A DNA stretch of 64,000 nucleotides from Escherichia phage V18. The translations under genes and the position numbers were made by a program. Each line of letters begins with the position of its first letter. Positions within the stretch are counted from its first letter, which is position 1. The notes beneath the pieces were generated by a model. That model did not search any database and was not told the origin of the DNA. It saw only the letters and a list, made by a program, of their open reading frames with translations. Below are positions 23,485 to 41,500 of this stretch, piece by piece. The stretch lies in the sequence record NC_041937.1; one strand, given 5' to 3'.

Positions 23485-23574
23485 ATGATTGCATCAATAT
23501 TAACGTTTATGGGTGGCGTGGCATTCGGATTCATTGTTTGCCTGTTTATAGTGATTATGTCTATGCGAGGCTGA
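23485..23574 (+). CDS. 29-aa hydrophobic peptide (putative)
   Basis: ATG at 23485; MIASILTFMGGVAFGFIVCLFIVIMSMRG; fills the gap between 23297..23482 and 23578..23949. Confidence 0.25.
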   Translation: MIASILTFMGGVAFGFIVCLFIVIMSMRG

Positions 23575-23945
23575 ATTATGAAACTTTTTGAGTGGTTTAA
23601 AAAGTTTAAATATAAAGCTGTAGCCATCGTGCCGTGGTCAATTCAGTGGGTTGATGAAGGTGGTCTACCAATACCTGGTGACAAAGATACTGGGTACTGG
23701 ATTATGATGGAGAACGGGTTTGGAAAGCGAAAGTATACGTGCACAAACTCTACTCGATCTGCCACTAACTGGTCTAAATTCTACTGGGGAGCCAACGAGT
23801 GGGGAAGATACGCCACCAAATCAATGGCACTTATTGGTATAGCAGAGTACATTGCAGCCAGAGATAGGGTTGGAGACACTTATTACTATACTGCGGACGA
23901 TATTCGTAACAGTGTTTACGTCCCACAACCACCTGATGGAGACCG

Positions 23946-24173
23946 TTGATGAAAGTTAAAGTTTTAGATTCAAGCTTCTATATTGGTCAGGAGCCCTTAG
24001 TGGGGAAAGTGTTTACTGCTGTCCCTAACGAAGATTACCCCGACCTTTTAAAAATAAAAGGGGCAGATCTTATTGCCGCTGGTGCATCTCATGAATGCTT
24101 TGACAGTCAGTGGACCTACAACTTTGCCCTAGGTGAGGATGTAGAGATAGTGGAGGACGATCATGAAGGTTAA
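23946..24173 (+). CDS. small acidic protein, paralog family A
   Basis: 75 aa; MMKVKVLD… ADLIAAGASHE …VEIVEDD. Confidence 0.45.
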   Translation: MMKVKVLDSSFYIGQEPLVGKVFTAVPNEDYPDLLKIKGADLIAAGASHECFDSQWTYNFALGEDVEIVEDDHEG

Positions 24174-24417
24174 AATTCTTGATTCTAACGTCTACTTGGG
24201 ACAATCCTTCCTGAAGGGAAAGGTAGTTCCTGCGGTATACTTTGAAGGGTTGCCGTGGGATGATCCTGTGCGGCAACATCACAGTTATGTAGGCCACAAC
24301 GTAGTGTTTATCTTAGGATCAGACCTGATCGCTGCTGGTGCACCGGAATATTATTTCGGGGAAGAATCCTATTATGCCTTTGGGGCAGGGTCAGATGCAG
24401 ATATTGTAGAGCTGTGA
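24163..24417 (+). CDS. small acidic protein, paralog family A
   Basis: 84 aa; MKVKILD… SDLIAAGAPEY …DADIVEL. Confidence 0.45.
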   Translation: MKVKILDSNVYLGQSFLKGKVVPAVYFEGLPWDDPVRQHHSYVGHNVVFILGSDLIAAGAPEYYFGEESYYAFGAGSDADIVEL

Positions 24418-24429
24418 TGGGTAACCGTT

Positions 24430-24825
24430 GTGAAAAATAAACTGTTCAAAGTTACAATGAAAATTCGCGGAGCTTGGAGCGTAAAGCAAGGGCGTATCCC
24501 AGAATTTGAGAAAGACTTCTACGTAGTCTCCACCTCGGAGGAGGCTGCATGCTGGCAGGCTGGCTATGCCTATGCAAGAACCTGGTACGAAGGATACCAG
24601 ACTGGGGGCTATGACGGAGAAATTATCAGCAAGGGTGTGGAAGAAATTAATGTGTTGACAAGTAAAAATTTTGTTATAGTGCATCCAGATTCCAGAGTGA
24701 AGCATTACTGGAATGCCAGAACAAAAACTTGGACACCGTTTGCAGATTCTGCTACACCACTTTTAAACCAAAAAGCTCTTGACTCTGCCCCGAGCTACGG
24801 GGTTGTTGAAGAAAAGCTAGACTGA
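24430..24825 (+). CDS. 131-aa protein, paralog family B
   Basis: …VIVHPDSRVKHYWNARTKTWTP…; paralog of 26635..27030. Confidence 0.45.
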   Translation: MKNKLFKVTMKIRGAWSVKQGRIPEFEKDFYVVSTSEEAACWQAGYAYARTWYEGYQTGGYDGEIISKGVEEINVLTSKNFVIVHPDSRVKHYWNARTKTWTPFADSATPLLNQKALDSAPSYGVVEEKLD

Positions 24826-25139
24826 AACAGTGAGGTGCCACTATGATGGATTTAGTTCTGAATATTGATAACGCAGGGGAGTTTAAAGACGATGGTGTAA
24901 CAAGCATTGACCAACCATGCTCTGCCAAGATTGACTCAAAATGGGCCTACAAGTTTGACGGAGAGATCTTCGCAAATGATGAGAAGGTTGTAGATGCTGC
25001 AGCCATTTTGAACGCTCTAGGGTACGACCCTGTGAATTCTTTGATCAAGGATCCTGTTGAGTTTGCAGAGTATGTTCGAAAAATGGCAGATCTTGCTGTA
25101 GATATTTTAGATACTATCGATAATAAGCTGTAAAAACTG

Positions 25140-25168
25140 TTGACACAACGCTTCAGATTTAGTATCAT
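25140..25168 (+). promoter_or_regulatory. sigma70-like promoter
   Basis: TTGACA 25140-25145, 17 bp spacer, TATCAT 25163-25168. Confidence 0.4.
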
Positions 25169-25217
25169 TGTTTTCAAAGAGAGATAGTTATTCCCTCTTC
25201 CTTAAAAGGAACACGTT

Positions 25218-25538
25218 ATGCAAATTGAAATCACTGGCAACAATGTAGAAATCACAGAAGGTATGGTATCTTTTATTTCCCGCAAAATGTCCAAGCTGGA
25301 GCGTTTACATCCCTCTGTCAACTATGCACGTGTGAGTGTAAAAGTTGAAAATGATCACCAGGAAGTTATGGCGTTCATTTTTGACAATTCTGGAAAAGAA
25401 GTTATTGCCAAAGCTAAAGGCAGTGATGCTTACGAGGCAACTGACCGTATGGTAGATGTTGCAGCACGTCAGCTGGCTAAATGCGGTGGAAAGAAAGGTA
25501 AGGGGAAAGGCAAAGTAAAGATTGACTTTGGAGAATGA
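25218..25538 (+). CDS. hypothetical protein with lysine/glycine-rich C-terminus
   Basis: 106 aa; MQIEITGNN…; C-terminal GGKKGKGKGKVK. Confidence 0.35.
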   Translation: MQIEITGNNVEITEGMVSFISRKMSKLERLHPSVNYARVSVKVENDHQEVMAFIFDNSGKEVIAKAKGSDAYEATDRMVDVAARQLAKCGGKKGKGKGKVKIDFGE

Positions 25539-25675
25539 GGTGCTACAATGGGTGTGATTAAGAAATTAGTCACAAATGTAGAGATTGCATGCTTTGAAAT
25601 TATGTTTGCAATCGCAGTTGTAGTTAATGTGTTAGGTTACGGCTATTAATATCAAATAATTGAGGAGACCTCTAA

Positions 25676-25945
25676 ATGAAAATTAAATTATTCAAAACTG
25701 AGCTGGCAGACAAAAACTGTGGACTGGTTGAAGGCATGATTGTTGAAGCACAACCAGTGGACTATATGAAGGTGGTTCGTGATGCCCTAGGTGAAGGTTT
25801 TGATCTGATGGAGCCAGCTCTGCGAGAAGATGTTATCGAGATGGCTAAAAAGCACACACCTGAAGGTTTGGTGGTGTTTGTTGCACCGGGTAACGGAGAA
25901 GAGTTGATTGTAACTCCGGATGTGTATGAGATTGTAGAGGAATAA
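25676..25945 (+). CDS. small acidic protein (family A-like architecture)
   Basis: 89 aa; MKIKLFKTE… ending YEIVEE. Confidence 0.4.
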   Translation: MKIKLFKTELADKNCGLVEGMIVEAQPVDYMKVVRDALGEGFDLMEPALREDVIEMAKKHTPEGLVVFVAPGNGEELIVTPDVYEIVEE

Positions 25946-26276
25946 TCCTGCTTGGATTAGCATACTTCCTCGATAAGGAAGATTTGTAATTATTTGTGGG
26001 AAAGGAATCCCAATCTCTTACCAGAGGTGATACTATATGATTGTTTATTTTAAAACTTCAGGTGGATACCCTGATTCTCAAAGCTTGATCGGAAAAACGT
26101 GCACAGCATACTCACCTCTTGATGAGGAGGTAAGCGATATTCTACGAAATATGTATCGGATTGACCCCCAAGAAGCTTTGATCAAAACCTTGTATTTGTC
26201 AAGGGCTCAGATATGAAGTCTTTGGGAGCATTCCCTGAAGCAGATGATGATGCCGTTTATTCGTTCATGACTCCTT

Positions 26277-26636
26277 TTGAAGCTATGGTTGTTGGGTGAT
26301 AATATGAAAGTACGCTTTATTGGTGAAACAATTCCTGTGCATCTCCGGTCTCCTGAGGATTCTGCAGATCTTGCATCTCAAAAGGCGAGAGGTTATGATA
26401 AGAAAGTAACCTCAACCGATGTAGTGCTTGAGGCTACTAGCTACCTGACCCTGCTGCATTCTTTAATCATTATGGGTACTATTTCAGCAACCTGATGAAT
26501 ATCGGTGAGCTTGTATTTATTAGTGGTGGAGAAATTGTTAGCAAGCTCGGTGGCGATCCAGATGTCTTTCATGAAACCTGTCCTTTTGCATTTGTGGTAG
26601 GTTCAGATGTGGAAGTTATTGAGGAGGTGCGGTAAT
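26277..26636 (+). CDS. family A paralog, apparently frame-disrupted
   Basis: N-terminus MKVRFIGE… in ORF 26277..26495; C-terminal half LVFISGGEIVSKLGGDPDVF…VVGSDVEVIEE in a small ORF 26496..26636 in another frame; mirrors 24163..24417. Confidence 0.35.
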
Positions 26637-27030
26637 GGTAAGCCTATACCGTGTCGAGTATAGCTCGGATACTGTATACAACGTAAGAAGCAAAGATCGC
26701 AGCGACAGAGTGCAAGAAATGTATGTTCTTGCCGACAGTCCGTTATCTGCAGCGTTCAAGGCAGGGGCTCTTGCATCTCGTTGGAAATTTGAAGGTGGAT
26801 CTTTCTATGAAGAAACCCTTGAAGATTCTGTTGTTATTTCTTCTGTAGAGGTTTCAGATGACTACGAAGGGAAAAAGTTCGTAATGCGGCACCCACACAG
26901 CAATATTGCGTACTACTGGGACGTTCTGAACAACGAGTGGACCCCAGATCTTCAGAAGGCTACTGTGCTAACACCGTTTTTGGCAGATAAGTTCCCACCA
27001 GAAGGTAATTTATCTGCACTGTTTCAGTAA
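26635..27030 (+). CDS. 131-aa protein, paralog family B
   Basis: …VMRHPHSNIAYYWDVLNNEWTP…; paralog of 24430..24825, same length. Confidence 0.45.
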   Translation: MVSLYRVEYSSDTVYNVRSKDRSDRVQEMYVLADSPLSAAFKAGALASRWKFEGGSFYEETLEDSVVISSVEVSDDYEGKKFVMRHPHSNIAYYWDVLNNEWTPDLQKATVLTPFLADKFPPEGNLSALFQ

Positions 27031-27048
27031 TTTTCTTGCACACAGGTG

Positions 27049-27077
27049 TTGACAACGCCAACCCTGTGTGAAATAAT
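27049..27077 (+). promoter_or_regulatory. sigma70-like promoter flanked by inverted repeat
   Basis: TTGACA 27049-27054, 17 bp spacer, AATAAT 27072-27077; CACAGG…CCTGTG inverted repeat brackets the -35 element. Confidence 0.35.
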
Positions 27078-27106
27078 ACCTTCATCTTAACAAGACAGGA
27101 GACCGA

Positions 27107-27367
27107 TTGATGAAGATTAAATTGAAAAACCTTGAAACGGCAGAGATTCAGGACGGTGTTGATTTCCGTTCTAAAGATGGTGACATCTTAGAGGTAAATA
27201 TTCCAACCTACGATCTGATCAAAGGTTTTGGCAACGTCCCCGAGGAAGGTATCGCAGACGTTCTTCTAATGTTAATCGTTAGTGGGACAGTGTTCTTGGG
27301 TGAAGGTGAGAACGCTATTGCAATCCCAAGCCATTTTTATGAAGTAGTTGACGAAGAGGTGCTGTAA
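27107..27367 (+). CDS. small acidic protein
   Basis: 86 aa; MMKIKLKN… ending YEVVDEEVL. Confidence 0.4.
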   Translation: MMKIKLKNLETAEIQDGVDFRSKDGDILEVNIPTYDLIKGFGNVPEEGIADVLLMLIVSGTVFLGEGENAIAIPSHFYEVVDEEVL

Positions 27368-27718
27368 ATGAAAGTAGAAATTACTGGTTTTGATGTGAAT
27401 GCGGTTCCGGAAGATATTTTAGCTAAACTTCCGGAAGGTTTTGGTAACGGTGTTGTGGTGGATGCTGTTCCTCCTACCAAAGACATTCTGCTGCAGTATG
27501 GTGTAGCAGAGGAAGATGTCGATAAAGTTCTTACAATGATGGCAATCGATCGTGTTGTCGTTGTTAAAGGTCTCGATAATTTTGAGAGTGATCCCCTGAT
27601 TATTCGTGGAGATGACTACAAAATCATCGATAATGAAGGCCAAGAGTTCTATGAACCTTGTGCAGAAGATATTCTTAACTTATTACTGGAAGCAGGCACC
27701 GAAGAGGAGGACGAATAA
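27368..27718 (+). CDS. small acidic protein
   Basis: 116 aa; MKVEITGF…; acidic C-terminus GTEEEDE. Confidence 0.4.
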   Translation: MKVEITGFDVNAVPEDILAKLPEGFGNGVVVDAVPPTKDILLQYGVAEEDVDKVLTMMAIDRVVVVKGLDNFESDPLIIRGDDYKIIDNEGQEFYEPCAEDILNLLLEAGTEEEDE

Positions 27719-28047
27719 TGAAGATTGACCCGTTACTGAAGGCTCGTGCAGAAAAAGCGTACACCATTAAGCTGACCACCCTGGTTCCTGCTTGTCATCC
27801 GGATGTAGGTTGGCCCGAAGGTCTGGTAGAGGGGACTGTAACAGCCGCATACCTTCCTAACATCAAATACCTTATGGAAATCTTAGAGATGGATGAGGAA
27901 ACTGCAGAACAGTTCCAGTTGGATATGAAACAAAGTGGGACTTTGGTTATTCACGGGTGGTATAATACTAAAGATGCAGAAGACCCTCTGGTAACTTCTA
28001 ATCTGGCATATGAAATCTTAGGGCCTTTGAACCTGGGGGAAGACTAA
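27718..28047 (+). CDS. hypothetical protein
   Basis: 109-aa ORF, start overlaps the preceding stop (ATGA). Confidence 0.35.
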   Translation: MKIDPLLKARAEKAYTIKLTTLVPACHPDVGWPEGLVEGTVTAAYLPNIKYLMEILEMDEETAEQFQLDMKQSGTLVIHGWYNTKDAEDPLVTSNLAYEILGPLNLGED

Positions 28048-28334
28048 TGAAAGATCTGGTTAAGATTAAGATTAAAGATACCAATGGAGAACTCAGCCAT
28101 TTTGGAATTAATGATGGTGACGAGCTGATCGCACACTTGCCTACCAAGGAAGTTGTAAGCAAAGCGGTTGCCGGAGAAGAAGCTGCAATGCAGGCTGCAG
28201 GTGTGGATGAAAACTATGTAGCCATGTGCATGTGCCGAGATCAGGTTGTTCTGTATAAAGCGTATCGACCAAACGGAGCCACGGAGTGGCTTGTATTCCG
28301 ACCTGAAGGATATGAAATCTTAGAGGCACTATGA
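28047..28334 (+). CDS. hypothetical protein
   Basis: 95-aa ORF, start overlaps the preceding stop. Confidence 0.35.
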   Translation: MKDLVKIKIKDTNGELSHFGINDGDELIAHLPTKEVVSKAVAGEEAAMQAAGVDENYVAMCMCRDQVVLYKAYRPNGATEWLVFRPEGYEILEAL

Positions 28335-28714
28335 TAAATCTTGCCAAGGTTGCAATGGTCCTGCTAATTATTTGCTGGTCAGTAACCTTAACACTGTGTC
28401 TTGTATTTCAGTAAGGTGCTTATATGAACATCCTGATGTGGGTTGTAGCAGTGGCGTTTGTTGCATGTTTTTGCTGCTGGGTTGCGGTGAGGATTTCTGT
28501 AGCTACCTTCGGAAGTTGGGGTTCTCAGAGTGGGATATTAATATCCTTTCTTTTCGCAATGAAACAATCTCAGCCGCCCTGCTCTGTAAGAAATTCAAGT
28601 GGGAACCTTGTGAGGTCATGAACTATCTAAGAACGGGGGATATCCCTGAAAGATTTAAAAAAGTTCTTGACGGCAAGGATAAATGATAGTATAGTGACTA
28701 ACAAGAGGTGAGGA

Positions 28715-28855
28715 ATGACTGATTTTACTGAAGCTTTGATGATGGCCTTGTCTGTTTTAGCGCTATCGGTATGTTTTGGGGCGTTATTCACATCTCTGGT
28801 TAAAGTTTTACATACAGTATTATTACCCAAGGAGCGCAGTAATGACGAAGATTGA
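28715..28855 (+). CDS. 46-aa membrane peptide (putative)
   Basis: ATG 28715; MTDFTEALMMALSVLALSVCFGALFTSLVKVL…; overlaps the start of the next gene. Confidence 0.25.
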   Translation: MTDFTEALMMALSVLALSVCFGALFTSLVKVLHTVLLPKERSNDED

Positions 28856-29093
28856 CTTGAATGCTGGCGACCATGTTGTTGTCAAATGCATCGGAGATTA
28901 TCTTGGATTCACAATCGGCAATACTTACGAGGCGGTAGTGTCGAAGGTTTATCATGATAAAGTCCTCAGTCTTGTATTTGACTGCGATGATGATGGGGAT
29001 GACCGATACGTCTGTGAGGTGCTGGCACGAGACGATAGTGAAGACCAGAAATTCCTGGTTATTGAACTGAACGGTATTTTTGTAGAACGTTAA
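28842..29093 (+). CDS. hypothetical acidic protein
   Basis: MTKIDLNAGD… preceded by AAGGAG at 28829-28834; within ORF-track entry 28776..29093. Confidence 0.4.
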   Translation: MTKIDLNAGDHVVVKCIGDYLGFTIGNTYEAVVSKVYHDKVLSLVFDCDDDGDDRYVCEVLARDDSEDQKFLVIELNGIFVER

Positions 29094-29121
29094 TTTAAAA
29101 CAACATAAGGAGACTCTTACT

Positions 29122-29427
29122 ATGGCTAAATCTAAAGTTGAACTGTTCACCTCTCTTCCTTCTGACACTGCAGAACGTGATCGCCTTCGCAAAACAATCG
29201 AAGAACTGGTGGAACTCCAGCTTCAGATTAAAGACCTGAAAGATGCCATCAAGGATATCATTCTCGTTGAGAAGCAGGATCATCTATATTCTCCTAAATT
29301 CATCAAATCTCTGGTGGCTACAGAGTTTGATATCCGCTACGAAGCTGAAAAACGTCGCGCTAAGATTGAAGAAGAGGTTGAGCACATGTCTGAGGCAGAC
29401 ATTCTGTTCAAACGCTCTGTAGAATAA
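29122..29427 (+). CDS. hypothetical protein, predicted helical/coiled
   Basis: 101 aa; charged heptad-like sequence; followed by terminator. Confidence 0.4.
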   Translation: MAKSKVELFTSLPSDTAERDRLRKTIEELVELQLQIKDLKDAIKDIILVEKQDHLYSPKFIKSLVATEFDIRYEAEKRRAKIEEEVEHMSEADILFKRSVE

Positions 29428-29433
29428 TGACAA

Positions 29434-29460
29434 AAAGAGGGGCCCAAGCCCCTCTTTTTA
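29434..29460 (+). terminator. rho-independent terminator
   Basis: AGAGGGG-cccaag-CCCCTCT followed by TTTTT. Confidence 0.55.
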
Positions 29461-29482
29461 CTATCTATGAAGGAGATTTGAG

Positions 29483-29809
29483 ATGGGTATACCGATCACT
29501 GTAAAAGAATTGAATGAACGTGATGCAGGCGGTCTATGGCCTGCACGAAAAATACGCTGCGTCTATATGAAAGAGAATCTTGAACATCTTGATCAACAGA
29601 TAAAGGTCGGCGATATTTTCGAGGTCTTCTATTCCAATCGGCGCAACTGGGAAACCATTCAGCCTTCTGGTTTTGTTCTTGCCAAACTTGACACTGGAGA
29701 AGTGATTATCCCTGGGTTGGATATTGTCTTCGAAATTATCCAGGAGTGGGATCCGGATAAGATTAGATACGAAGAACTATTCGGTAAAGGTATTATCAAA
29801 CCTGTGTGA
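29483..29809 (+). CDS. hypothetical protein
   Basis: 108-aa ORF. Confidence 0.35.
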   Translation: MGIPITVKELNERDAGGLWPARKIRCVYMKENLEHLDQQIKVGDIFEVFYSNRRNWETIQPSGFVLAKLDTGEVIIPGLDIVFEIIQEWDPDKIRYEELFGKGIIKPV

Positions 29810-30796
29810 GGTGGATTATGTCTACAAAGGCGGCTAAATACTCTTACATGCCATCAACCTCTGCAGAGGTAGACTTTAGTTTCGATGTGTTTCCACTGTT
29901 TGAGGTGGTTCTGGCATACCCAACAATACTATCTACTCCTGAATCACTTGTGCCTGTTAAGTTGCAGAACGCTATGCATTCTATGCACTACAACAATAAA
30001 TGTAGGCACAGATGGTGTCAAGACGAGGAAAAAGATTTGGATAGTTTGAGGGATTTTGACAGTCACCTTTTGACACCTTTCAGCTACTCCAACCTTGATA
30101 AGCCTCATGGGTATAGCAAAATATCAAATTTAAGACACCTAGGACGCTCTGTGGCGTCCTTTTCTTTATCTGGTGCACGATTGCATACCTTGGACAGATA
30201 ATCCCGTTACAGAGCGTTTAAGAGCTTCCTACAAACAAATCTCTCTTTCGAGCGTAGCGAGAACGCACGTCCGTTTTGACCCAAATCACCATACGCTCGG
30301 ATTTTAACCAAACCCTCGCGGCGTTTCTGTTGACACATTACCGCTACCGTGATAGTATCCACACAGTTTGGAGAATATGGAATACACAATGAGAACATTG
30401 TCTGAAGTTTTAGTGGTGATCCTGATGATCATTACGTCTATAGCGGCTGTTGCCGGAATACTCACGGGTGGAACATGATCAACACACATGCATCTGAAGG
30501 AGTGACGACATGTAGCCTGGATGAGCCAGTTAAAGAGGAAAACTTAGATTCTGATGACTCTTCATCTTCGTCCCAGACAGATCCTGAGGCTGATGACCTA
30601 ACGTGGGAAGACATCGTAGACATCTGGTTCTCTATTATGCCTGAGCACGAAGAGTTCAGAGGTGGTAGACTATGAAGCACCGAGCCCACACAGATTCCTC
30701 ATGCTAAAGCATGGCCTGAAGAGGCAAACGTGCATAATTCCAGCGTATTGGAACGTATAAAACCCTGTTCACACTCTCATTTCCAGAGGAGATTTC

Positions 30797-31012
30797 ATGA
30801 AGATAGAAATATTTGGTGGAGCTGACAACACTCGTGGCCTGATTTACCTTGAATTTGATGAATCATACCTGCCAGAGGTGTTAAATATAGACTCTGTTGC
30901 TGAGGCTTTGGGAGTAAACCCTAAAGAACTCCACTCTTGTGCTGAGATCGATGGTTGGGAAGAGACCATGAACATTGATTTCAGTGAAGTGGAGGATGAA
31001 CCGCTAGACTGA
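30797..31012 (+). CDS. small acidic protein, last gene of the plus-strand arm
   Basis: 71 aa; MKIEIFGG…; acidic C-terminus. Confidence 0.4.
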   Translation: MKIEIFGGADNTRGLIYLEFDESYLPEVLNIDSVAEALGVNPKELHSCAEIDGWEETMNIDFSEVEDEPLD

Positions 31013-31362
31013 CGCACAATTAGCTGCCCGGCTAAAGTGCTGGAAGCACCTATAACACATCTTTCAACTAAATTTCCTACCACCACAATCACTTACCTCC
31101 CGCACATGACTGTTTGCTTGTTTAGTGAGCAGTCATGCCTTGACATTCTTGCCTATCCTGATAAAATTAAGTTCTTCTCTTTTCTTTTACCGAGTAATTC
31201 GGGTTTTCTGTTCTCTTCGGTTTGAAGGGGTATGGAGATACACCTGAGTGAACAGGGTGAACAACCGAACCATTAGCTATGGCATTAGCATGGCGAAGCG
31301 GACGGGTGACGAAAGAGGGGCCGGAGGACACCAGTCACTGCCATATGATATATGGGTGATAA

Positions 31363-31902
31363 CCTGAAGAGTCTGAATAAGTGTTTAAGTACCAGTCAGA
31401 GGAAAAGGTGAATGGTAGCCGAAGGGGGGAGGGGGGTTTCTTGTATCTTTAATTTGTATATTATGTATACACTTGTAAACCAATCTAATCTGAATCTGTT
31501 TACCACACAAAGCGGATAGAGACAAATATTGCCTATTAAACTTGAATTATTTATAGAAAATACCACAACACCCCTTAAGTCTTTGATTTACACACAAATC
31601 CTACAGATATTCAACCTCCATATTTAACATACTTGTAACATATTCCATACTCTACCTGTCTGATCAATTTCCCAACTACATTCTCATATTTTCCCTGTCT
31701 GTACTACCCCTGCCCCGCCGGGAGTCCCGTCATATCTGGCTTTCCAGCAAATATCACACCCACAAATATCATTGCCTGAAGAGGGTTTCATCCCATAATA
31801 CCTGCCTTACCTGAAGAGCGCTTCATACACCACGTAAATTTTTTAATTGACCTCCCCCTGCCCCTCCGGAGAGGTTGGCTTTTCCCACACAGACCTGAAG
31901 AG
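31363..31902. repeat. dispersed CCTGAAGAG repeat family in the inter-arm non-coding region
   Basis: Exact 9-mer at 31363-31371, 31775-31783, 31810-31818, 31894-31902; also CCCTGCCCCGCCGGGAG (about 31708) and CCCTGCCCCTCCGGAGAG (about 31853). Confidence 0.5.
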
Positions 31903-32495
31903 TCAGCCAGAAATATCTGAATAGGCCCGATCTGCCCAGTCAGGAGCCAGTAGCGACTGGAGTGCTGCCAGGCGGACGGAATGGGAATACTTCTCATTCT
32001 TATAACAATTCTCAAATATCGAGGCAGTGAGAGAAATTAATAGGCCAGGCCGTTCACACAGTGGCACAACATTTGCAACCTATCCTGTGGGGATGAATGA
32101 GAATACCTATCATTGTGAGAACTATTATCATTACGGGCAATTTAACATAATACCCATTATGCGCACCACTGGCGATACATACAGGGATTGATACCATGAG
32201 TTACAGTTTACACACATAACAATTATATTTCTTACTATTTGTGTGGGATATAGTTAGCAGCCAATAGATTAGATATTGACCTGTAGACTTCCAACCGTCT
32301 GGACGTCTAAACGCCCACACACCAAGGGTTATACATACATCGCTGAATGTAAACAGGGCCGCAAAAATGCTACCATACCAGTTTGTAAATTTTTCATGCA
32401 GCACTTGACAAAGAGGAGAAAAACTTGTCTGACACAATGTCACACAATATGACACTTTACACTGGACACACTAGGCACAAAAAAAAAAAACTGCA

Positions 32496-33370: not shown

Positions 33371-33790
33371 TTATAATGATTCGTATATTTCAAAAATCCG
33401 ATTTGCCAGGTCGTTACGGTAGCGGAATTTTTCCTCACGTTTGATCATCAGATCTTTAAAGCCATATTCTTTAAGCACTTCATTAACTTTATGGCGGCAC
33501 ACCTTCATATTATCTTGAGCGTCACCAATAAACTTGTTGCTGTGGTGCATTGCTTTAATTTCTTCTTCCAGGACCAGGGCAACTACCCGGACCGGATCAA
33601 GCTGGTAGGCGGTAACATCGATGCGGCATTGTAGACGGCTTTTAACGTCTGCCACCGGATATACTGCAACCTCTTCCCCGTCAACATTGACAATAACTAG
33701 TTTACCATCGATCTCGAATCCTTTCGCCGCCGGACCGTGACAAAAAGCGTTATCAAAGCTATATGCCGGATTATTAGATTTAATGTTCAT
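33371..33790 (-). CDS. hypothetical protein, first gene of the minus-strand arm
   Basis: 139-aa ORF; hairpin GGGGCC-taa-GCCC at about 33330-33350 downstream. Confidence 0.4.
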   Translation of the reverse strand: MNIKSNNPAYSFDNAFCHGPAAKGFEIDGKLVIVNVDGEEVAVYPVADVKSRLQCRIDVTAYQLDPVRVVALVLEEEIKAMHHSNKFIGDAQDNMKVCRHKVNEVLKEYGFKDLMIKREEKFRYRNDLANRIFEIYESL

Positions 33791-34945
33791 GGTGTTTTTA
33801 CCTCTTAGTTAATTTTCTTACAACTTCCCTTCAAAAAAGAATATAGCAAAACTGCCGATCCCTGTCAACCAAGGATGGCATAATTTTTATGTGATCAAGG
33901 GGCTTTATTGCCCCTGACCATGTAACTTGTTGTATTATTTGTTATTCATCCAGTTTTCCCAAGCTGCCTGATAATCTGCCTCACTGCGGCGGATCTCTTC
34001 TTGCTCTTCAAGCCGGATCTCTTCTTCCAGGTACCCCAAGATATCGGCTTTTTTGGTCTGGCGTAACATCCAATCATCTTTTTTACGGGTAAAGATCTTA
34101 TATGCTTTCTCGCAAACCTCTTTTTTGCTACCTTTTTGGACTTTAAGAACTTTGTAGGCCATGTACTGAACTAGTTTGAGCTGATCAAGACGTTTCATGA
34201 TGTTTACCTCTTTATGAGGTTCTGGTTTGGTGTGGGCCTTTTGGCCCGTGTCATTATCTTATTACTTACGGCGGCAAAATTCAAGTGTTTTTAATTGATA
34301 ATCTTCCTCAGCTTGGAGTACAACCGCTCGATCATTTCGTTGGCATTGGTGAAGCCATACCCTTGAGCGAACTCATCCGCGCCACCTTCGTGATCATGTT
34401 CTGCGTTCATCGCTTCCACAAAATGGAATTCAAGATTATTGAGGTAAGGGCTTGATGTTCCGTCCTCTTTTTCGATGAGATCCCAGATAGCATTAAAACG
34501 TGATTCAACTTCTTGATTAATCCAGCTTGACATAATGTTTTCCTCTCTTCTGGTTGTTGTGTGGGCACTTTTGCCCCTTCAAGATAAATAATATCCCACC
34601 ACCTGGCAGATGTCAACGGTTTTTATAGTTTTTATATAACAGGCACCCCCGGTGATTGTCTCCCCCCGTCGCCAGGTGCCACCCGTGAAACAAGTATAAC
34701 AAAAAACAGGACAAAAACAAGCCCTGTTTTGTAGATATAAGGATTATATTTTTTCGCCTATGTAGTCCGGCCTATTCTTTTCGGTCATACGCTTAAGCAT
34801 TTTTTGCAAAGAGTTAATATATAACACCAGATCGCTGACTACCAGGACAACATTAATCAGCACATACCTAACCATAAAGGGAAAGATCGCCAACATTGCC
34901 GCCACGATCCCCATGGTAATAATTACCTTTCTCATGGTTAGCGGT

Positions 34946-35221
34946 TTACGTAGCTTTACCGTTTACGGTTATCGGCAGATCCTCCAGGTCTGGATCTTCT
35001 TTAAGGTCGCGAGCAAGTTCACCGCACCGAACGCCCTCGAATCCGTAGTACTCTGTCGTGCCATCCTGGAAAGTTTTAGCGGCAAGGCATAGGCGATAAG
35101 TAACACCGATTTGATTGACGGCATGGATATCAGTTAGATCTACCTCTTTTGCCAGCTCTTTGGCCATTACAGGCGCATTAAGTCCAACAACCAGGGCAAC
35201 CACTGCGATCATCTTTTTCAT
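34946..35221 (-). CDS. small secreted protein (signal peptide)
   Basis: 91 aa; MKKMIAVVALVVGLNAPVMA N-terminal signal-like segment. Confidence 0.4.
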   Translation of the reverse strand: MKKMIAVVALVVGLNAPVMAKELAKEVDLTDIHAVNQIGVTYRLCLAAKTFQDGTTEYYGFEGVRCGELARDLKEDPDLEDLPITVNGKAT

Positions 35222-35537
35222 TGTATCTATCCTCTTTCTGCTACGTTTAAGGCGGCGGCAACCGCCTGTTTATGCTTTGTTGGTTAATTTTCGGGTATCG
35301 GTATAAATTAAACTATGCTGTACGCTCAACTATAACAACGGCTTGAGGGATCTCACCTTCCACCACTATCAAGGCTTTTTTCTGCGTAATGGATATCTTT
35401 ACCCGCTTCAGCGTGGCGGTAAAGTCTTTCATTTCGTCACGTGGTGTTTTAGTGCAATACCAGATCTCAGGCTTGCCGATCTGTAAGTTGCGTAAAAATT
35501 CCGTTTTGCCTGTTTTGTTAGTGATCATTTGCCAACC

Positions 35538-35642
35538 TCACCCGATACCGTTGGAAGACAAGATCACATTAGCCATGGTTGCAATCAGGCCAATACCCAG
35601 GGCAATAACCAGGATCACCGCATCAATTAATTTCTGTTTCAT
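35538..35642 (-). CDS. 34-aa hydrophobic peptide (putative)
   Basis: ATG (minus) at 35642; MKQKLIDAVILVIALGIGLIATMANVILSSNGIG. Confidence 0.25.
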   Translation of the reverse strand: MKQKLIDAVILVIALGIGLIATMANVILSSNGIG

Positions 35643-36326
35643 GGTGTTTATCCTCTTCCTGTTGCGTTTAATGGGGCGCTTGTCTCCCCTACTTATTATG
35701 TTTTAATCTTCTTGTTCCAGGTGGCGGACCATTCCACCGCCTTATGTATTATGCTTTGTAAGATGGTTGTTTGTTTTCAAACTATTTTAACGATAATCAT
35801 CGTACGCTTTATTAACCTGGCGAATATAACATTCAAAAGCCAGATCAATAGATTTATATTCACGGATATACTCACCATAGGAAACCACATACATTTCTAT
35901 AGCTTCCTCATATGCGAGGAGAGTAGAATCCAAGCCTACGATCTCAGTCTTTGCAATAATAGCCATGATTTTTATCCTCTTTGTGGTTGGTGGGCTTGCC
36001 CCTTTGATTTATATACTACAGTCTTATATGGTCATGTCAACTATTTTCAAAAAATTTTTCTGCCGTGATATTCTTCCCGGTGGGGTTCGCCACCTTCAAA
36101 ATTTTATCATGCACTGGACGCCCAAAAGAATAAGCGCCGTACGCAGTAAGCCAATAATCCCCGTCAGGCTGTACTATTACCGCCGCATATGGTACGCCTT
36201 TTTCGTTTTTGCTGACAAAATAGATCACATTGCCATTAATAGCCTCAGCGCGTTTAATTTGTTCCATCATGATGATTCACCTATCTTTATTTTTAATAGT
36301 TTCAGGCCTTTTTGGCCCCGCCAGGT

Positions 36327-36611
36327 TTATTTATTGATAGCGTGCAACGGGAAAGGTACGCCAGGTTGATAGATAACTTTTACAACCTCATCGGGGCAAA
36401 AGAAATTACAAAATTCACCCCGATAAGCTTCATCTTCTTTTAATTCTTCATCAACATACTCAAAAAAGTAGTCGATGCTTGGATAATCCTGACCGGGATT
36501 ATAGTCAACCATTGTCAGGACTAGTTCAAGATCGTTGCGTAGGATATGCATACCTGCTTTTAAGTATTTTGCTTCCATTTCTACTACATCGCCAACGGTA
36601 ACAATAGCCAT
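36327..36611 (-). CDS. hypothetical protein
   Basis: 94 aa; a 17-nt poly-C/G tract lies 37 nt upstream of its start codon. Confidence 0.4.
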   Translation of the reverse strand: MAIVTVGDVVEMEAKYLKAGMHILRNDLELVLTMVDYNPGQDYPSIDYFFEYVDEELKEDEAYRGEFCNFFCPDEVVKVIYQPGVPFPLHAINK

Positions 36612-36647
36612 GATTTTAACTCCTATCTATCCGGTTAATGATTGGAG

Positions 36648-36664
36648 CCCCCCCCCCCCCCCCC
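36648..36664. repeat. homopolymeric C17 (G17 on minus strand) tract
   Basis: 17 consecutive C at 36648-36664 in the 5' region of gene 36327..36611. Confidence 0.8.
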
Positions 36665-36844
36665 GACACCCTTTATTATCCATATTGTAGGGCTTGATGC
36701 AAGTACTTCTTTAAAAATTTTTTAAGCGCCTTGGGGGCCGCTGTAGCGCTAAAATAATAAAGGCCATGCAACCGCATAGCTTTATGTGATTATATCGCTG
36801 CAGGCCCTACCATGGGCCTTATTTTGCATCATTTGCTGGAATTA

Positions 36845-37162
36845 TTAAGAGAAAACATCGTTCACAATAGCGATCACAATGCCGCCCACCTTGTCACGGT
36901 CAACAATGCACAAATCACCATAGATCATGTGGTAGTCTGGATGATCTTTCACGGAATAGTCAATGAGTGTCTTCTTATCGTCCAGCTTACTAACTTCCAT
37001 TCTCATAAAGATATGAGAATCATCAAAGGCATTATTCCGAAAAGTCATAACCTGACCGCCAGGGCACCCGGTGATTTCCACCTCCACGCCGTCTACGATC
37101 TGACCATCAAAGAAATAAAGATTATTAGCGGGTATAAACATGATCATTGCTCCTTTTTGCAC
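36845..37162 (-). CDS. hypothetical protein
   Basis: 105-aa ORF. Confidence 0.35.
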   Translation of the reverse strand: MQKGAMIMFIPANNLYFFDGQIVDGVEVEITGCPGGQVMTFRNNAFDDSHIFMRMEVSKLDDKKTLIDYSVKDHPDYHMIYGDLCIVDRDKVGGIVIAIVNDVFS

Positions 37163-37185
37163 TGATTATTTTAACAGGGTTTAAA

Positions 37186-37230
37186 TTTACTTTATTGATG
37201 GCCCTGGAGTCAAGGCCATCTAAAAATAAA
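37186..37230 (-). promoter_or_regulatory. repeated promoter/operator-like element, copy 1
   Basis: Inverted repeat GATGGCC…GGCCATC (37197-37203 / 37214-37220); minus-strand reading gives TTGACT-N18-TAAATT; upstream of 36845..37162. Confidence 0.4.
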
Positions 37231-37910
37231 TTTTACAGGCCTACAATCTCTTTATTCGTTTTACTGCTGCCTCAGCGCCTTGAGGGTAAAAATTATGGTA
37301 ACCAATCACGCGGGTAATACTGATCGCCGCCTGATGATCTTCATAATACCCCTTGAATATTTCTTGACCATCAACCAGCACAGCAATTTTTTCTTCTTTT
37401 TTGAAGTTAATAACGCGGATATTGTTGCTCATTTTGTTTCTCCTTTTGGAACTTTGTCTGTGTGGTGGGGAGTGTCTCCCCGTTGATTGTTATTATCCAT
37501 ATTCAGGACCGGATTGCAACACCCAGGGAGAAAAAATTTGAAAAGTTAGGCCCCAGGGATCGGGGCCGTTATCAGGCACGTACAGCGATAAAATACATCC
37601 CTACGCCTAACAATATTTCAAGGGCGATGATCTCCAGCCATACCATAACACGGCGCGCCTTATCGGTGCTGGGCTTATCCTTGGGTGTCATCGTCTCCCC
37701 CTTTCCTCCTGTTAGTAGTGACGTGGTTTGTAATGGTCCCCAGGAGTATTATCACCACGCACATTACAAGAAAAATTATCTCTGTCGTTGTTCGATCCAT
37801 TGTTATAAAACTCCTTAAGATCAGGCCTGAAAATAAAGCTTTCGTTATTGAATCCATCCCGCCAGGCGGCTGGCTTCAAATCTTCACTAAATGGATTAAT
37901 TAACGTGGTA

Positions 37911-38315
37911 TTATTTAAACGGCTGGCCCACATATTTTCTATTCCTCTCAAATAAGCGATCCGCCTCAGTTAAACAAATCTCATGGGCGTGATCTCTGGT
38001 TTTAGCTTCATCGAAAACCTGTTGTGCAAGGCTGCAACGTAGGGAGACTGGAAGATCACTATAATAGGCGTTGACAAACGTTTGAGCGTCGTACAGGTCT
38101 GAAAATACTTTACCCTTTCTATTATTCCCCTTGTCAACAATTGCAAGGATAACCAATACAATAGTTGCAACCACCCCCAGGAAAATAGATATAATAAACC
38201 ATAAAAAGGCGGATCTTCCCATCTTGCCAGCGATCCAGGCGTTAAACAAGGCAACCAATACAGCCAAAATAATAAATTCCATTCTATGTACCTCTTTTAC
38301 AGTTCTGATTAACAA
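37911..38315 (-). CDS. membrane protein
   Basis: 134 aa; two hydrophobic helices (ILAVLVALFNAWIA, FLWFIISIFLGVVATIVLVILAIV). Confidence 0.4.
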   Translation of the reverse strand: MLIRTVKEVHRMEFIILAVLVALFNAWIAGKMGRSAFLWFIISIFLGVVATIVLVILAIVDKGNNRKGKVFSDLYDAQTFVNAYYSDLPVSLRCSLAQQVFDEAKTRDHAHEICLTEADRLFERNRKYVGQPFK

Positions 38316-39043
38316 TAAGGCGGCAAATATGCCGCCTGTTACCTGATTAAAAATTATCGCCGTAAAGCTTTCCGCTTTCTGCCCATACCACCACGCGAGG
38401 CATACTATCCCACACGTCTTGTTTTAGATTAACGCGTGCAATTCTTCGGTGGTGCTCATACCGGGCACGGGCTGATTGTATACTGCAAAACGACCGCCTG
38501 CATAATCATAGGCCAGGGTTAAATCACACTGGATCATCTTTTTGATCATGGCATTAAGCATGGCGTTAGCCGCATATTGATCACGTTTTAAAGGCAACTC
38601 TTTGATTAGTTTGCGATAGTTTTCGATATGGTCGCACACTGTTTCACGAGGAAGATCTTTCATATCCTCGCGAAAGGTAACCAGGTTAAACATAACGGTG
38701 TCAATAGCTTTGGTAGTGTTTTTCATGATGTTATCCTCTTTGTTTTGTGTGGGGCAAATCATCGCCCCCTTGAGTTTTAATATAGCAGGTTTTTAGGTTA
38801 TTGCAACACTTTATTTATGAAAAAGTCATCTCACCATATTCATCGACATCAAACCGCCAATCATTGGCCTCGATAAGGCCGATCAGGTTTTCTGCGGTGA
38901 ACTGTTCTAGATAGGCCTCCTCCAGGTCTACGTAAACCTTGCGGGATAGCTCCCGTACCGTCTCGGTGATCAGTTCTTCCAGTCTTCCACTTTGTTTTCT
39001 TGTTTGGCGGTCAGATCTAGCCAAGTGGTATCAATGTACCCGC

Positions 39044-39436
39044 TTACAGTGTTTTCATGGCTGTAATGGCTGTACTTGTCGCGTTCAACACTGGCTGATA
39101 ACTCGCATCGTGCATTGTGCCGAACAAGTGACGAATTGATCGGAACTTGGTCAGGGCCCTTACTTTACGCAAAAATTTTTCTAAATCCACGTTTTCAGCA
39201 CTGATTGAAGCGCCGTCACCCTGGCACCAAAAGCCGGACCAATGTACTTCGGTATCTTCAAGGCCGTACTCTGGAAAGATATATTCTTTGTAGTGTTCAA
39301 TTACACTTTCTGCAAAAAAGTCATCCCCGCTGCGTTCTTCTCTTTCGCGGACCATTTCAATGGCTTTTTCTTTTTGTTCGTCGGTCAGCACGTCGAAAGA
39401 TAAATTGCAACCTGTAGTAATGTTAACGGTAGTCAT
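39044..39436 (-). CDS. hypothetical protein
   Basis: 130 aa; conserved 5'-leader hairpin CGGGAAGTTTTCCCG at 39466-39480 and promoter-like TTGACA-N16-TATACT (minus) at about 39493-39522. Confidence 0.4.
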   Translation of the reverse strand: MTTVNITTGCNLSFDVLTDEQKEKAIEMVREREERSGDDFFAESVIEHYKEYIFPEYGLEDTEVHWSGFWCQGDGASISAENVDLEKFLRKVRALTKFRSIRHLFGTMHDASYQPVLNATSTAITAMKTL

Positions 39437-40625
39437 GATGTTTTCTCCTATTTTCTTTGTTAGTGGCGGGAAGTTTTCCCGTTTACGTGTTTAAGTATAC
39501 TTATCAAGATTTACTTGTCAACACTATTTTTTAAATTATTGTGGCGCAAAATGTTTAAAATCTCCTCAACGTCATCAACACGGCGGCAATTTTTAAACGC
39601 TACCAATTGCCCCATGATTTTAATCACTGGGCGGCCTTGCCAGTGCCCCTGGAGAAAGCGCGCCTTGACTTTATCGGTGGAACTATCACGCCACCAAATA
39701 GCCTTGTTGTTGCAGTAGTAAAAATTATTCAGGACAACATCAACTTTATCAAAATTTTTTAATTTACGCATGGCGTTTACTCCTTTCTCTCTTTGATGTG
39801 GTTAGTATAGCTAACCTGTTGACGATGTCAAGGTTAAATAAAAAACTGTCAATGATATTTTTAACGCCATAAAACGGCCCTAAGCGATGTTTTCAGGTTA
39901 AAGGGGGGGCGATTGCATAGGTGGGGCCTTTTTGGCGCTTACAGGGCCAACCAGGGGCGCTATTCGTAGGATAGAAATAAAAAGCCCCGCACAATGGCGG
40001 GGCGTTGGTTGTTATTTGTCTTTATGGCGGTATCGTTCTGCCTGTCGTTCACGTTCCAAAAGTAGGCCGGGCAATTTACGATCATAATGATTGCGCCAGA
40101 TCTTCCCAAACCTTTTTGGCTTATTCAGTTTATTGTTACGCTGGCGGCGTTCTGGCAGCTCTTCGGAATCATGAGGGCGCTTTACAATTTTCTCGAAATT
40201 AATTTTCATATATTCCCCCCTTGCTAACTTCAATATTGGCCTGAATAGCCGATACGGCGCTTTATAACTTCCTGATCTGTGTGGTCATATCCCCAAAAGT
40301 CTACGATTTTTGCGCCTCCAGCCTTTAGGCGGTATAGTGTTTCTTGCATCTTGTAAGCTGGGATCGGTCGCGGTGTTACCTGGTCGCCTCTCTCATCCTT
40401 GTACTTGATAATGTAGTCTTCGTTGTCGTTGAATGCCCAAAATGGGTATTCTGTGAGCGCGTTGCTATCTTTTTCGTTTTTAGATTGGATCTTGTTTACA
40501 ATTAAAGCCGTAGCAATAGCGCCAATGATAAAACTAGCCCCGCTAATCATGTACTTTCTCCTTTCATGGTGTTAATAAATTATCTTTATAGATGGCCCTG
40601 CAACCAGGACCACCGAAAAAACAGC

Positions 40626-40871
40626 TTATTTGACGATACCGACAAAACAGATCCCGCCTTCCCCTATATAGGCAATATCGGTAATTTTATAATTTGTCAA
40701 GATCTGCTTATTTAGTTCATTAATAAAATCGGTCATTGCGTTGGTGTAGTTGTCTTCCGTGTCTAAGGCATAATCCCAGGTGTACACCTTTTTACGTCCG
40801 AAGCCTTTTACCATGATACGGGCGCTTTTGGTGTTGGTAGGGGCATAATATTTGGTGATTAGTGCTGCCAT
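40626..40871 (-). CDS. hypothetical protein
   Basis: 81 aa; same RBS/start context as 36327..36611 (ATAGGAGTTAAAAnCATGGC). Confidence 0.4.
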   Translation of the reverse strand: MAALITKYYAPTNTKSARIMVKGFGRKKVYTWDYALDTEDNYTNAMTDFINELNKQILTNYKITDIAYIGEGGICFVGIVK

Positions 40872-40912
40872 GGTTTTAACTCCTATGCATTAGTTCAGTG
40901 TTAACAGTATAA

Positions 40913-40962
40913 AGTTTACTTTATTGATGGCCCTGGTGTCAAGGCCATCTAAAAATAAGCTT
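40913..40962 (-). promoter_or_regulatory. repeated promoter/operator-like element, copy 2
   Basis: Near-identical 50 bp to 41533-41582; GATGGCC/GGCCATC inverted repeat bracketing a TTGACA on the minus strand. Confidence 0.4.
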
Positions 40963-41301
40963 ACTCGTTTTCTTCCAGCTCCGCAAGCTCTTCTTTTGCT
41001 TCTTCCAACCCTGTCTGTAATTCCTGGTATTCTTCATCGTCCTCAATATCCAGCTGTCGATGTAGTCGCTAAATCCGCAGCGGTAAGCGATAGGATCTAG
41101 CTCCTTGAGGATACGCGACGGAAGAAAAGAAATGTTTCCGATCATAATTTCGCCGTAGATCTCGTCTAACCATTCATCATAGTTTTCGTCGTACTTGTCC
41201 TCGTCGATTTCAAAGTTATCGATCTTATTCTCAAGGTCTGCGATCTGTTTTTTCAGCGCGGCGATCTGCATGGCTTTTTCTGCGGCGGTCATAGTAGTCA
41301 T
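40939..41301 (-). CDS. hypothetical coiled-coil/acidic protein (C-terminal part possibly out of frame)
   Basis: 120 aa; N-terminal KKQIADLENKIDNFEIDEDKYDENYDEW; leader hairpin GGGAAGTTTTCCCG at 41328-41341. Confidence 0.35.
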   Translation of the reverse strand: MTTMTAAEKAMQIAALKKQIADLENKIDNFEIDEDKYDENYDEWLDEIYGEIMIGNISFLPSRILKELDPIAYRCGFSDYIDSWILRTMKNTRNYRQGWKKQKKSLRSWKKTSKLIFRWP

Positions 41302-41380
41302 GGTGTTTTTCTCCTTTTGTGTGTTCTGGGAAGTTTTCCCGTTTATGTGCTTATTATAGCGATTTAAGTTAGCTTGTCAA

Positions 41381-41500
41381 TTAAAAGTTTAAGAAAAATT
41401 TTGCGACACCGTTGGCGCTACCCATCAACATTTGCGCCAGGATGTACCCAATGATGCAAACGATGATGGTTACCTTTGTGTGCTGGCGTGTAGTGCTCAT
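41381..41500 (-). CDS. 39-aa hydrophobic peptide (putative)
   Basis: ATG (minus) at 41500 preceded by GGAGGC; MSTTRQHTKVTIIVCIIGYILAQMLMGSANGVAKFFLNF. Confidence 0.25.
   Translation of the reverse strand: MSTTRQHTKVTIIVCIIGYILAQMLMGSANGVAKFFLNF

Follow-up and report, generated by a model that had tools for sequence, protein, structure and literature searches.

Small hydrophobic reading frames of an rV5-like Escherichia phage: probable genes of single-helix membrane proteins and a mini-gene shared with prophage arrays

Six hydrophobic reading frames between larger genes

The stretch of 64,000 nucleotides (nt) from Escherichia phage V18 that was analysed here (sequence record NC_041937.1; hereafter called the window) contains six short open reading frames (ORFs), designated c1 to c6, that are candidate genes of small membrane proteins. 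They were found at exactly the positions reported in a preliminary description of this DNA, and their deduced products are hydrophobic peptides (Table 1). A megablast search of 50,697 phage records with window positions 23000-42000 yielded 256 matching records, with Escherichia phage RudolfGeigy (Vequintavirus) as the best match (95.5% identity over 99% of the query), followed by rV5 and many rV5-like phages. Judged by these matches, the source of the window is an rV5-like Vequintavirus of E. coli. The genes of the region are encoded on the plus strand up to about 31.1 kb and on the minus strand from about 33.4 kb, with a geneless stretch of approximately 2.3 kb between the two blocks, and all six ORFs occupy gaps between larger genes on the locally coding strand.

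Table 1. Small hydrophobic ORFs, promoter-like sites and prophage arrays considered in this study. Positions are those of the window unless another locus is named.
Feature	Position	Strand	Description	Sequence or remark
c1	23485..23574	+	29 aa, single helix	MIASILTFMGGVAFGFIVCLFIVIMSMRG
c2	25548..25649	+	33 aa, single helix	MGVIKKLVTNVEIACFEIMFAIAVVVNVLGYGY
c3	28715..28855	+	46 aa, N-terminal helix and charged C-terminal tail	MTDFTEALMMALSVLALSVCFGALFTSLVKVLHTVLLPKERSNDED
c4	30389..30478	+	29 aa, single helix	MRTLSEVLVVILMIITSIAAVAGILTGGT
c5	35538..35642	-	34 aa, single helix	MKQKLIDAVILVIALGIGLIATMANVILSSNGIG
c6	41381..41500	-	39 aa, single helix	MSTTRQHTKVTIIVCIIGYILAQMLMGSANGVAKFFLNF
Mini-ORF, rV5 ORF131	21785..21904	+	39 aa, GTG start, one helix	phrog_15251 match
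Mini-ORF	28331..28414	+	27 aa, hydrophobic	MINLAKVAMVLLIICWSVTLTLCLVFQ
Mini-ORF, rV5 ORF181	37572..37691	-	39 aa, basic N-terminus followed by one helix	Intact in 12/12 loci; phrog_13629 match
rV5 ORF170 homologue (44-aa membrane mini-protein), fused	34744..34935	-	63-aa ORF
Sigma-70-like site	28667-28695		5' of c3
Promoter-like site	30330-30358		5' of c4	Extended -10
Promoter-like site	41533..41562	-	About 30 nt 5' of c6	TTGACA-18-TAAACT, consensus match only
Promoter-like site	41353..41380	-	Abutting the c6 stop	Perfect TTGACA-16-TATAAT; annotated in rV5 as promoter P192, for the next gene
Mini-ORF array, PAR prophage	L018 4001-4952
Mini-ORF array	L019 4001-4646
Mini-ORF array	L020 4001-4760
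Mini-ORF array, MagusPhagus	L021 2046-3032

Each of the six products comprises no more than 50 amino acids (aa) and combines a short polar end with one stretch of about 20 residues that is uncharged or nearly so and sufficiently long for a bilayer (about 17-22 residues), the 17-residue Kyte-Doolittle mean of this stretch ranging from 2.35 to 2.83. Six-frame analysis of the window gave 489 ORFs of 25-50 aa, of which 17 (3.5%) reached a threshold of at least 2.3 for this mean. Ten of these are located on the coding strand, and nine of the ten are gap-filling ORFs of the c1-c6 kind. As the coding strand is A-rich and not T-rich, its composition does not favour hydrophobic ORFs; this property, along with the small proportion of ORFs of the same size that reach the threshold, ruled out hydrophobicity as an artefact of composition. 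With regard to their hydrophobicity, the c1-c6 products are likely to be inserted into a membrane.

The ORFs were compared with 16 related loci from RudolfGeigy, rV5, A51.2, Murica, ECP32, five unannotated 'Campylobacter phage' records and contigs of the IMG/VR database, including one divergent IMG/VR relative (L004) with 72-87% DNA identity at the ORFs. This comparison set was built from GenBank records, and scans of IMG/VR with the neighbouring proteins gave 3-4 loci each. Among the loci carrying the respective segment, intact ORFs were present in 8/8 cases for c1, 11/12 for c2, 14/14 for c3, 11/15 for c4, 7/7 for c5 and 9/10 for c6, the twelfth c2 locus starting at the ATG of codon 3. When each distinct variant codon was counted once and the counts were pooled over c1-c6, the proposed frame contained 62 synonymous and 75 nonsynonymous changes, compared with 25/110 and 14/118 in the shifted frames (Fisher p = 5e-11). 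The ratio of nonsynonymous to synonymous substitution rates (dN/dS), calculated according to Nei-Gojobori against the most divergent homologues, was 0.21 for c1, 0.31 for c2, 0.21 for c3, 0.10-0.36 for c4, 0.10-0.41 for c5 and 0.11-0.29 for c6, and it was higher in the shifted frames than in the proposed one. The transmembrane core of c2 is invariant in a relative with 87% identity. Control small ORFs from the same gaps that lack hydrophobic helices were broken in most relatives and gave no frame signal. The preliminary description had likened the six ORFs to membrane peptides of phage early regions, and the view that they are real genes of small hydrophobic peptides with a single transmembrane helix is supported by their conservation and by purifying selection; it had also named a lack of conservation in related genomes as grounds for refutation, and this objection fails, the ORFs being conserved. 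As a set, c1-c6 are very probably real protein-coding genes by these measures.

Shine-Dalgarno (SD)-like motifs (GAGG, GGAG or AGGAGG) were detected 6-10 nt 5' of the ATG of c1, c2, c3, c5 and c6, the motif of c6 being an AGGAGG located 7 nt before the start. The distances to adjacent genes are short: c1 begins 2 nt after the upstream stop and ends 3 nt before the next ATG, the stop of c4 overlaps the start of the next gene (ATGA), and c3 overlaps the next gene by 14 nt. The c2 ORF is located 9 nt 3' of a gene encoding a phage ribosome-hibernation factor (RaiA/HPF-like), the two together occupying window positions 25218-25649. The pairing of c2 with this gene was present in every relative examined, including the one with 87% identity. 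The conserved start of c4 is ATG 30389, which is the sole ATG in the divergent relative L004, where it is preceded by AAGAGGAG, and which coincides with the beginning of the phrog_34195 profile. An in-frame ATG at position 30377, from which c4 would comprise 33 aa, was considered as the conserved start and rejected, as it is lineage-restricted and absent in L004 and the four codons before 30389 vary nonsynonymously.

The statement of the preliminary description that the ORFs are unannotated holds true for its own ORF track only, since public records annotate c1-c6. All six are annotated as hypothetical proteins in RudolfGeigy (bas52_0159, 0151, 0141, 0135, 0122 and 0106). Moreover, c2, c3, c5 and c6 are equivalent to rV5 ORF145/gp140, ORF156/gp151, ORF173/gp168 and ORF193/gp188 and share 93-99% nt identity with rV5 (NC_011041) at corresponding positions. 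These four rV5 ORFs were listed as 'membrane protein, 1 TMD' (transmembrane domain) on the basis of TMHMM/Phobius (Table S3 of Kropinski et al. 2013, PMC3606486). The Vequintavirus orthologues in rV5 and RudolfGeigy occupy the same positions, with about 90-100% amino-acid identity. The records differ in several details from the gene models used here. In rV5, ORF173 is annotated with a longer start (46 aa as against 34 aa for c5 in the window), and c4 is hidden under ORF162, which is over-extended upstream in another frame. The c1 ORF occurs in 89 phage records, in most of them without annotation, and was left unannotated in rV5, A51.2, ECP32 and most other records. The record of A51.2 designates c2, c5 and c6 as "putative membrane protein", and the Murica annotation includes c2, c4 and c5 together with a ribosome-binding site for each of them, the annotated length of c4 being 90 bp in Murica and 102 bp in RudolfGeigy.

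Full-length matches to PHROG families were obtained for five of the ORFs, namely c2 (phrog_15151, E = 1.6e-25, 1-33/33), c3 (phrog_16755, E = 3.6e-36, 1-46/46), c4 (phrog_34195, E = 4.3e-21, profile 1-29/29), c5 (phrog_14631, E = 1.8e-22, 1-34/34) and c6 (phrog_16391, E = 1.8e-31, 1-39/39). All five families are labelled 'unknown function', and c1 is without a PHROG family (best match E = 0.004). A large protein word-index search detected homologues of c3 in close relatives only, consisting of 11 clusters at 78% identity or more, all of 46 aa. An exhaustive HMMER search with c5 among 1.84 billion representatives retrieved only its own 50%-identity cluster. Homologues of c5 with 34 aa were found in two distant IMG/VR phages (L007 and L008) and in the 145-kb phage vB_EcoM_AMO3598. 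The c5 alleles are 38-53% identical, all comprise 34 aa and share the invariant C-terminal motif ATMANxxxSS, and the N-terminal half has diverged in the homologues yet is still hydrophobic. Two c5 alleles circulate within Vequintavirus.

The segment of the window that includes c5 and its neighbours (35315-36273) is 82-93% identical at the DNA level to segments of 145-150-kb phages such as phi92, KKE7M, BME3 and Antha, and the rest of the region is without a match to these phages at that level. Since the match is confined to this small-gene module, the sequences suggest that the module may have been laterally exchanged between phage groups.

The c1 unit and its counterparts in prophages

The c1 ORF is flanked by a 9-nt direct repeat, CGAGGCTGA, with one copy at 23470-23478 on the plus strand and the other at 23566-23574, the last 9 nt of c1. 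The upstream copy contains the GAGG motif of c1, whereas the 3' end of c1 includes the SD of the next gene. The c1 unit measures approximately 100 nt and is bordered by a 9-11-nt junction, CGAGGCTGA(TT), which includes SD and stop and abuts the next ATG. The unit is precisely absent in Murica, in phage C7 and in an IMG/VR relative. The 'empty-site' genomes of Murica and C7 contain a single copy of the 9-nt repeat, and the genomes without c1 keep the downstream gene with one copy of the same SD.

A DNA query consisting of nine concatenated mini-ORFs was compared with 5,426 complete E. coli genomes. Only c1 matched, in 10 chromosomes with 78-92% identity over all 90 nt, and none of these copies is annotated. 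Additionally, the 29-codon ORF and its junction context recur in ten IMG/VR contigs of about 22-77 kb, mostly in the range of 52-57 kb; the copy most similar to the c1 peptide of the window differs from it at two residues. A degenerate c1 pattern retrieved nothing from a collection with one genome per species. The prophage homologues of c1 show 76-93% amino-acid and 78-92% nucleotide identity; dN/dS between c1 and the prophage copies is 0.07-0.55, with dS up to 0.9, and the homologues always comprise 29 codons across more than 20 prophage or viral contigs. In the prophage copies, the repeat reads CGAGGCTGATT on both sides. The similarity between the mEp021/mEpimmI group and the Vequintaviruses is confined to about 109 nt that correspond to c1 and its junctions.

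The gene order in these prophages is holin, lysozyme, Rz and a 180-aa gene, followed 2 nt later by the c1 homologue and, after about 0.9 kb, by two terminase genes; the c1 homologues are located approximately 0.9 kb downstream of the lysis cassette. Left nearly empty by PGAP, the stretch of about 0.9 kb represents an array in which 8-11 ORFs with ATG starts follow one another head-to-tail; every product measures 20-47 aa, contains a single hydrophobic helix and begins with a short N-terminus that is usually acidic. The c1 homologue is the first member of the array, with the junction CGAGGCTGATT-ATG as in the window. Arrays were found in the mEp021/mEpimmI group (mEp010, mEp554, mEp044, mEp013 and MagusPhagus) and in the PAR, M1/5 and UMNK88 prophages of E. 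coli. They share peptide types, and members have been gained, lost or duplicated between genomes; in MagusPhagus, the c1 slot is occupied by an unrelated 27-aa hydrophobic ORF. The array ORFs are without PHROG families, and the word 'transmembrane' is absent from the mEpimmI genome paper (PMC11893012).

The c1 ORF of the window is solitary, with unrelated genes on both sides, whereas its mEp021-type homologue heads a tandem array, the other 7-10 ORFs of which have no counterpart in the window. A common origin of c1-c6 as paralogues of each other or of the array ORFs was considered and discarded, as no similarity was found beyond that between c1 and the first array ORF. On account of the flanking repeat, the single-copy empty sites and the different peptide in the MagusPhagus slot, c1 is, by its sequence features, a discrete and exchangeable mini-gene cassette whose borders carry SD and stop and abut the next ATG. 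It was either gained by Vequintaviruses or lost by some of them.

Further mini-ORFs, promoter-like sites and other features of the region

Four more ORFs of the c1-c6 kind, which had been missed in the preliminary description, were identified in the window (Table 1). The counterpart of rV5 ORF131 displayed 17 synonymous and 4 nonsynonymous changes in frame, compared with 0/21 and 1/20 in the other frames. The 27-aa ORF is situated in an 89-nt gap and is intact in 12/12 loci; its ATG overlaps the stop of the upstream gene, which ends at 28334, and a GAGG motif is located 4 nt upstream. Its synonymous and nonsynonymous changes amounted to 7/6, compared with 4/8 and 3/10 in the other frames. It has no annotation in RudolfGeigy, rV5, A51.2, Murica and ECP32 and no PHROG match, and these sequence features provide moderate evidence for coding. 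In the case of the ORF170 homologue, 142 nt present in RudolfGeigy, rV5 and ECP32 are deleted, so that the mini-gene continues in frame into the last 20 or so codons of the next gene. The rV5 ORFs 131, 170 and 181 are also among the membrane proteins with one TMD in Table S3 (PMC3606486). In total, the region from 21.7 to 41.5 kb encodes about ten single-helix mini-proteins with no detectable mutual similarity.

In addition to the promoter-like sites of Table 1, such sites overlap the starts of c1 and c2. The sigma-70-like sites are consistent with transcription by the host polymerase, and promoters of this host type would fit early or middle expression. Two observations are to be set against the label 'early' that the preliminary description had given to the surrounding genes: the products of the neighbouring ORFs 133, 137 and 152 were detected in rV5 virions by mass spectrometry (PMC3606486), and the prophage copies of c1 are located in the late (lysis-packaging) region.

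The geneless stretch at the meeting point of the convergent gene blocks (window positions ~31100-33370, ~2.3 kb) contains no convincing ORFs and has a lower G+C content of 0.387. Its repeats comprise a perfect inverted one of 18 nt (32527-32544 / 32660-32677) and several short direct ones, and no tRNA and no Rfam family were detected there. The equivalent stretch was called 'non-coding' in the rV5 paper (PMC3606486), and repeat regions are annotated at this place in some records.

The 'Campylobacter phage' records MG065635-MG065690 (D#, D1, C5, A12a, A142, C7 and others; UNVERIFIED) are about 94-95% identical to E. coli rV5-like phages in this region and are placed under Vequintavirus by NCBI. 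Because of this identity and classification, their Campylobacter host label looks doubtful.

Single bases present in 5-7 of 7 relatives are missing in the window at positions 26179, 26440, 28505-28507, 30102, 31586, 34326, 34952, 37565, 38982, 39105 and 41052, along with a 2-nt case at 40250. Three of these losses were checked and break genes that are intact elsewhere, namely 26037-26299, 26277-26635 and the gene of an 87-aa membrane protein starting at 28424. The missing bases, which do not affect c1-c6, suggest that the assembly is error-prone or, possibly, that the broken genes are true pseudogenes.

Possible roles of the single-helix peptides

We favour, with some reservation, the interpretation that c1-c6 are six unrelated accessory genes of single-helix membrane microproteins that act on membrane proteins or on membrane integrity. 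The host RNA polymerase would start at sigma-70-type promoters and transcribe them along with the small genes around them, and each ORF would be translated from its own start signal, often coupled to its neighbour, as the sequence signals suggest. The hydrophobic peptides would then insert into the inner membrane of E. coli, the positive-inside rule predicting an N-in/C-out topology for c2, c4, c5 and c6 and an N-out/C-in topology for c1 and c3. By analogy, each peptide would most likely bind a host or phage membrane protein helix-to-helix and thereby change the activity of its partner, with superinfection exclusion, control of transport or signalling and tuning of lysis as plausible outcomes. 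The mini-genes appear to be individually dispensable and exchangeable, as c1 is present or absent, c5 and c6 occur as divergent alleles and the ORF170 mini-gene is fused. That the peptides act mainly by binding specific membrane proteins, and not by generic membrane damage, is the less assured part of this interpretation and somewhat less likely than not.

Several observations weigh against this interpretation. Searches of Pfam, NCBIfam and PADLOC with the ORFs gave nothing meaningful and no characterised homologue, so that the proposed mode of action is an analogy only. No direct evidence of translation or membrane localisation was found for any of c1-c6, the mass-spectrometry flags for rV5 virions (Table S3, PMC3606486) do not include the six ORFs, and literature searches revealed no transcriptomic, Ribo-seq or functional study of the c1-c6 genes. 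The substitution counts per ORF are small. On these counts alone, c2 is the weakest case: it does not separate the frames by itself (6/11 vs 6/11), and one c2 pair has a dN/dS of about 1, on 5 differences. On translation signals, the coding case is weakest for c1 and c4. The SD spacing of c1 is poor (10 nt), and the GGAG motif of c4 is located 15 nt before ATG 30389 and 3 nt before the in-frame ATG 30377 and is mutated in three relatives.

Single-helix proteins of less than 50 aa are known to insert into the E. coli membrane and to regulate larger membrane proteins (review PMC12648545; YohP insertion PMC7549839). AcrZ, MgrB, CydX, KdpF and YohP are like c1-c6 in size, in the presence of one helix and in their short polar ends (PMC12648545, PMC7549839, PMC8404706), but c1-c6 are phage-encoded and show no sequence similarity to them, the resemblance being architectural only. 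The type I toxins TisB and DinQ (PMC3567139) are likewise single hydrophobic helices of 20-50 aa and are known to target the inner membrane. In contrast to such toxins, with which they share no homology, c1-c6 are located inside phage operons and not in toxin-antitoxin loci, and no known antisense-RNA antitoxin family was found. The virulent myovirus T4 also makes small membrane proteins whose targets are the host envelope or the DNA of incoming phages, namely Imm and Sp, which mediate superinfection exclusion, as well as Ac and rI. These T4 proteins are larger (51-97 aa) than c1-c6 and unrelated to them in sequence, so the functional parallel can be drawn only as an analogy. Searches of Pfam, NCBIfam and PADLOC revealed no similarity of c1-c6 to characterised exclusion proteins (T4 Imm/Sp, P22 SieA and others). 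A mention in PMC13250531 gives AcrAB-TolC as the presumed target of the T4 ac gene product.

The closest competitor of this interpretation assumes that the peptides are membrane-damaging effectors, that is helices resembling type I toxins or holins/antiholins that depolarise or permeabilise the inner membrane and thus shut down the host or time its lysis. The size and hydrophobicity of the peptides resemble those of TisB, DinQ and YohP-type peptides (DinQ PMC3567139; YohP depolarisation bioRxiv 10.1101/2025.05.06.652344), the layout of c3 with its helix and charged C-terminal tail is holin-like, and other small TMD proteins are encoded near the putative holins of rV5 (PMC3606486). The location of the prophage c1 homologues directly 3' of the holin-endolysin-spanin cassette also favours this assumption somewhat. 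However, PHROG, Pfam and NCBIfam revealed no similarity to toxin or holin families, and no endolysin/lysin gene adjoins any of the six ORFs in RudolfGeigy, rV5, A51.2 and Murica, the rV5 lysin being ORF89 at a distance of about 25 kb. No known antitoxin or other Rfam family reached its gathering score in 22000-43000, and about ten membrane-damaging peptides expressed from host-type promoters would be hard to square with a productive infection. On balance, membrane damage as the principal role appears unlikely.

Two further explanations dispense with a function of the peptides altogether. Translation itself might matter, with the ORFs serving as coupling or spacer elements that deliver ribosomes or unfold mRNA, and the tight junctions of c1 (spacers of 2 and 3 nt, with the next SD inside), c4 (ATGA) and c3 (14-nt overlap) would suit such a role. 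It would not account, however, for peptides that are conserved in sequence, length and hydrophobicity, with synonymous changes in excess, nor for the conservation of c1 in the wholly different gene context of the prophages; furthermore, c6 is followed by a promoter and not by a coupled gene, and genomes without c1 retain the downstream gene along with a single copy of the same SD. These points make the coupling explanation very improbable. The assumption of chance ORFs in spacers, conserved through close kinship or because of promoter or terminator DNA, is largely refuted and hardly credible any more. Most relatives are 92-96% identical, so that intact ORFs alone are weak evidence, promoter-like sites overlap the c1 and c2 starts, and T-rich spacers readily encode hydrophobic residues; but the synonymous excess is frame-specific (p = 5e-11), ORFs of unchanged length are still present in relatives with 72-87% nt identity and in other groups of phages, and the non-hydrophobic control ORFs of the same gaps are broken in most relatives and devoid of a frame signal.

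The single-helix mini-genes could also belong to a shared pool of exchangeable cassettes that moves between temperate and virulent coliphages, the peptides forming a diversified battery of helix binders. Movement of mini-genes between phages is suggested by the c1 junctions, by the presence or absence of c1 in Vequintaviruses and by its first slot in the arrays of mEp021-type prophages, which a different peptide fills in MagusPhagus; the full idea is speculative and, at present, rather improbable. If it applied, the targets may be membrane-embedded effectors of host defence or the entry machinery of competing phages, and the interspersed mini-genes of rV5-like phages may represent the same strategy in dispersed form.

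By themselves, the six ORFs add little to what is known, as GenBank, PHROGs and the rV5 paper of 2013 already contain them and they have been published as membrane proteins; the c1 cassette and the mini-ORF arrays of the prophages constitute a modest new lead. The quantitative case for selection at the protein level, including c1 and the new 27-aa ORF, justifies their annotation in rV5-like therapeutic and typing phages. Single-helix peptides are the products of about 10 of the approximately 60 small genes in this block, which is therefore a good place to seek phage factors that act on the host inner membrane. Moreover, c1 connects a virulent myovirus with the hydrophobic mini-gene arrays, for the most part unannotated, of common gut prophages and thus provides a testable case of mini-gene mobility.

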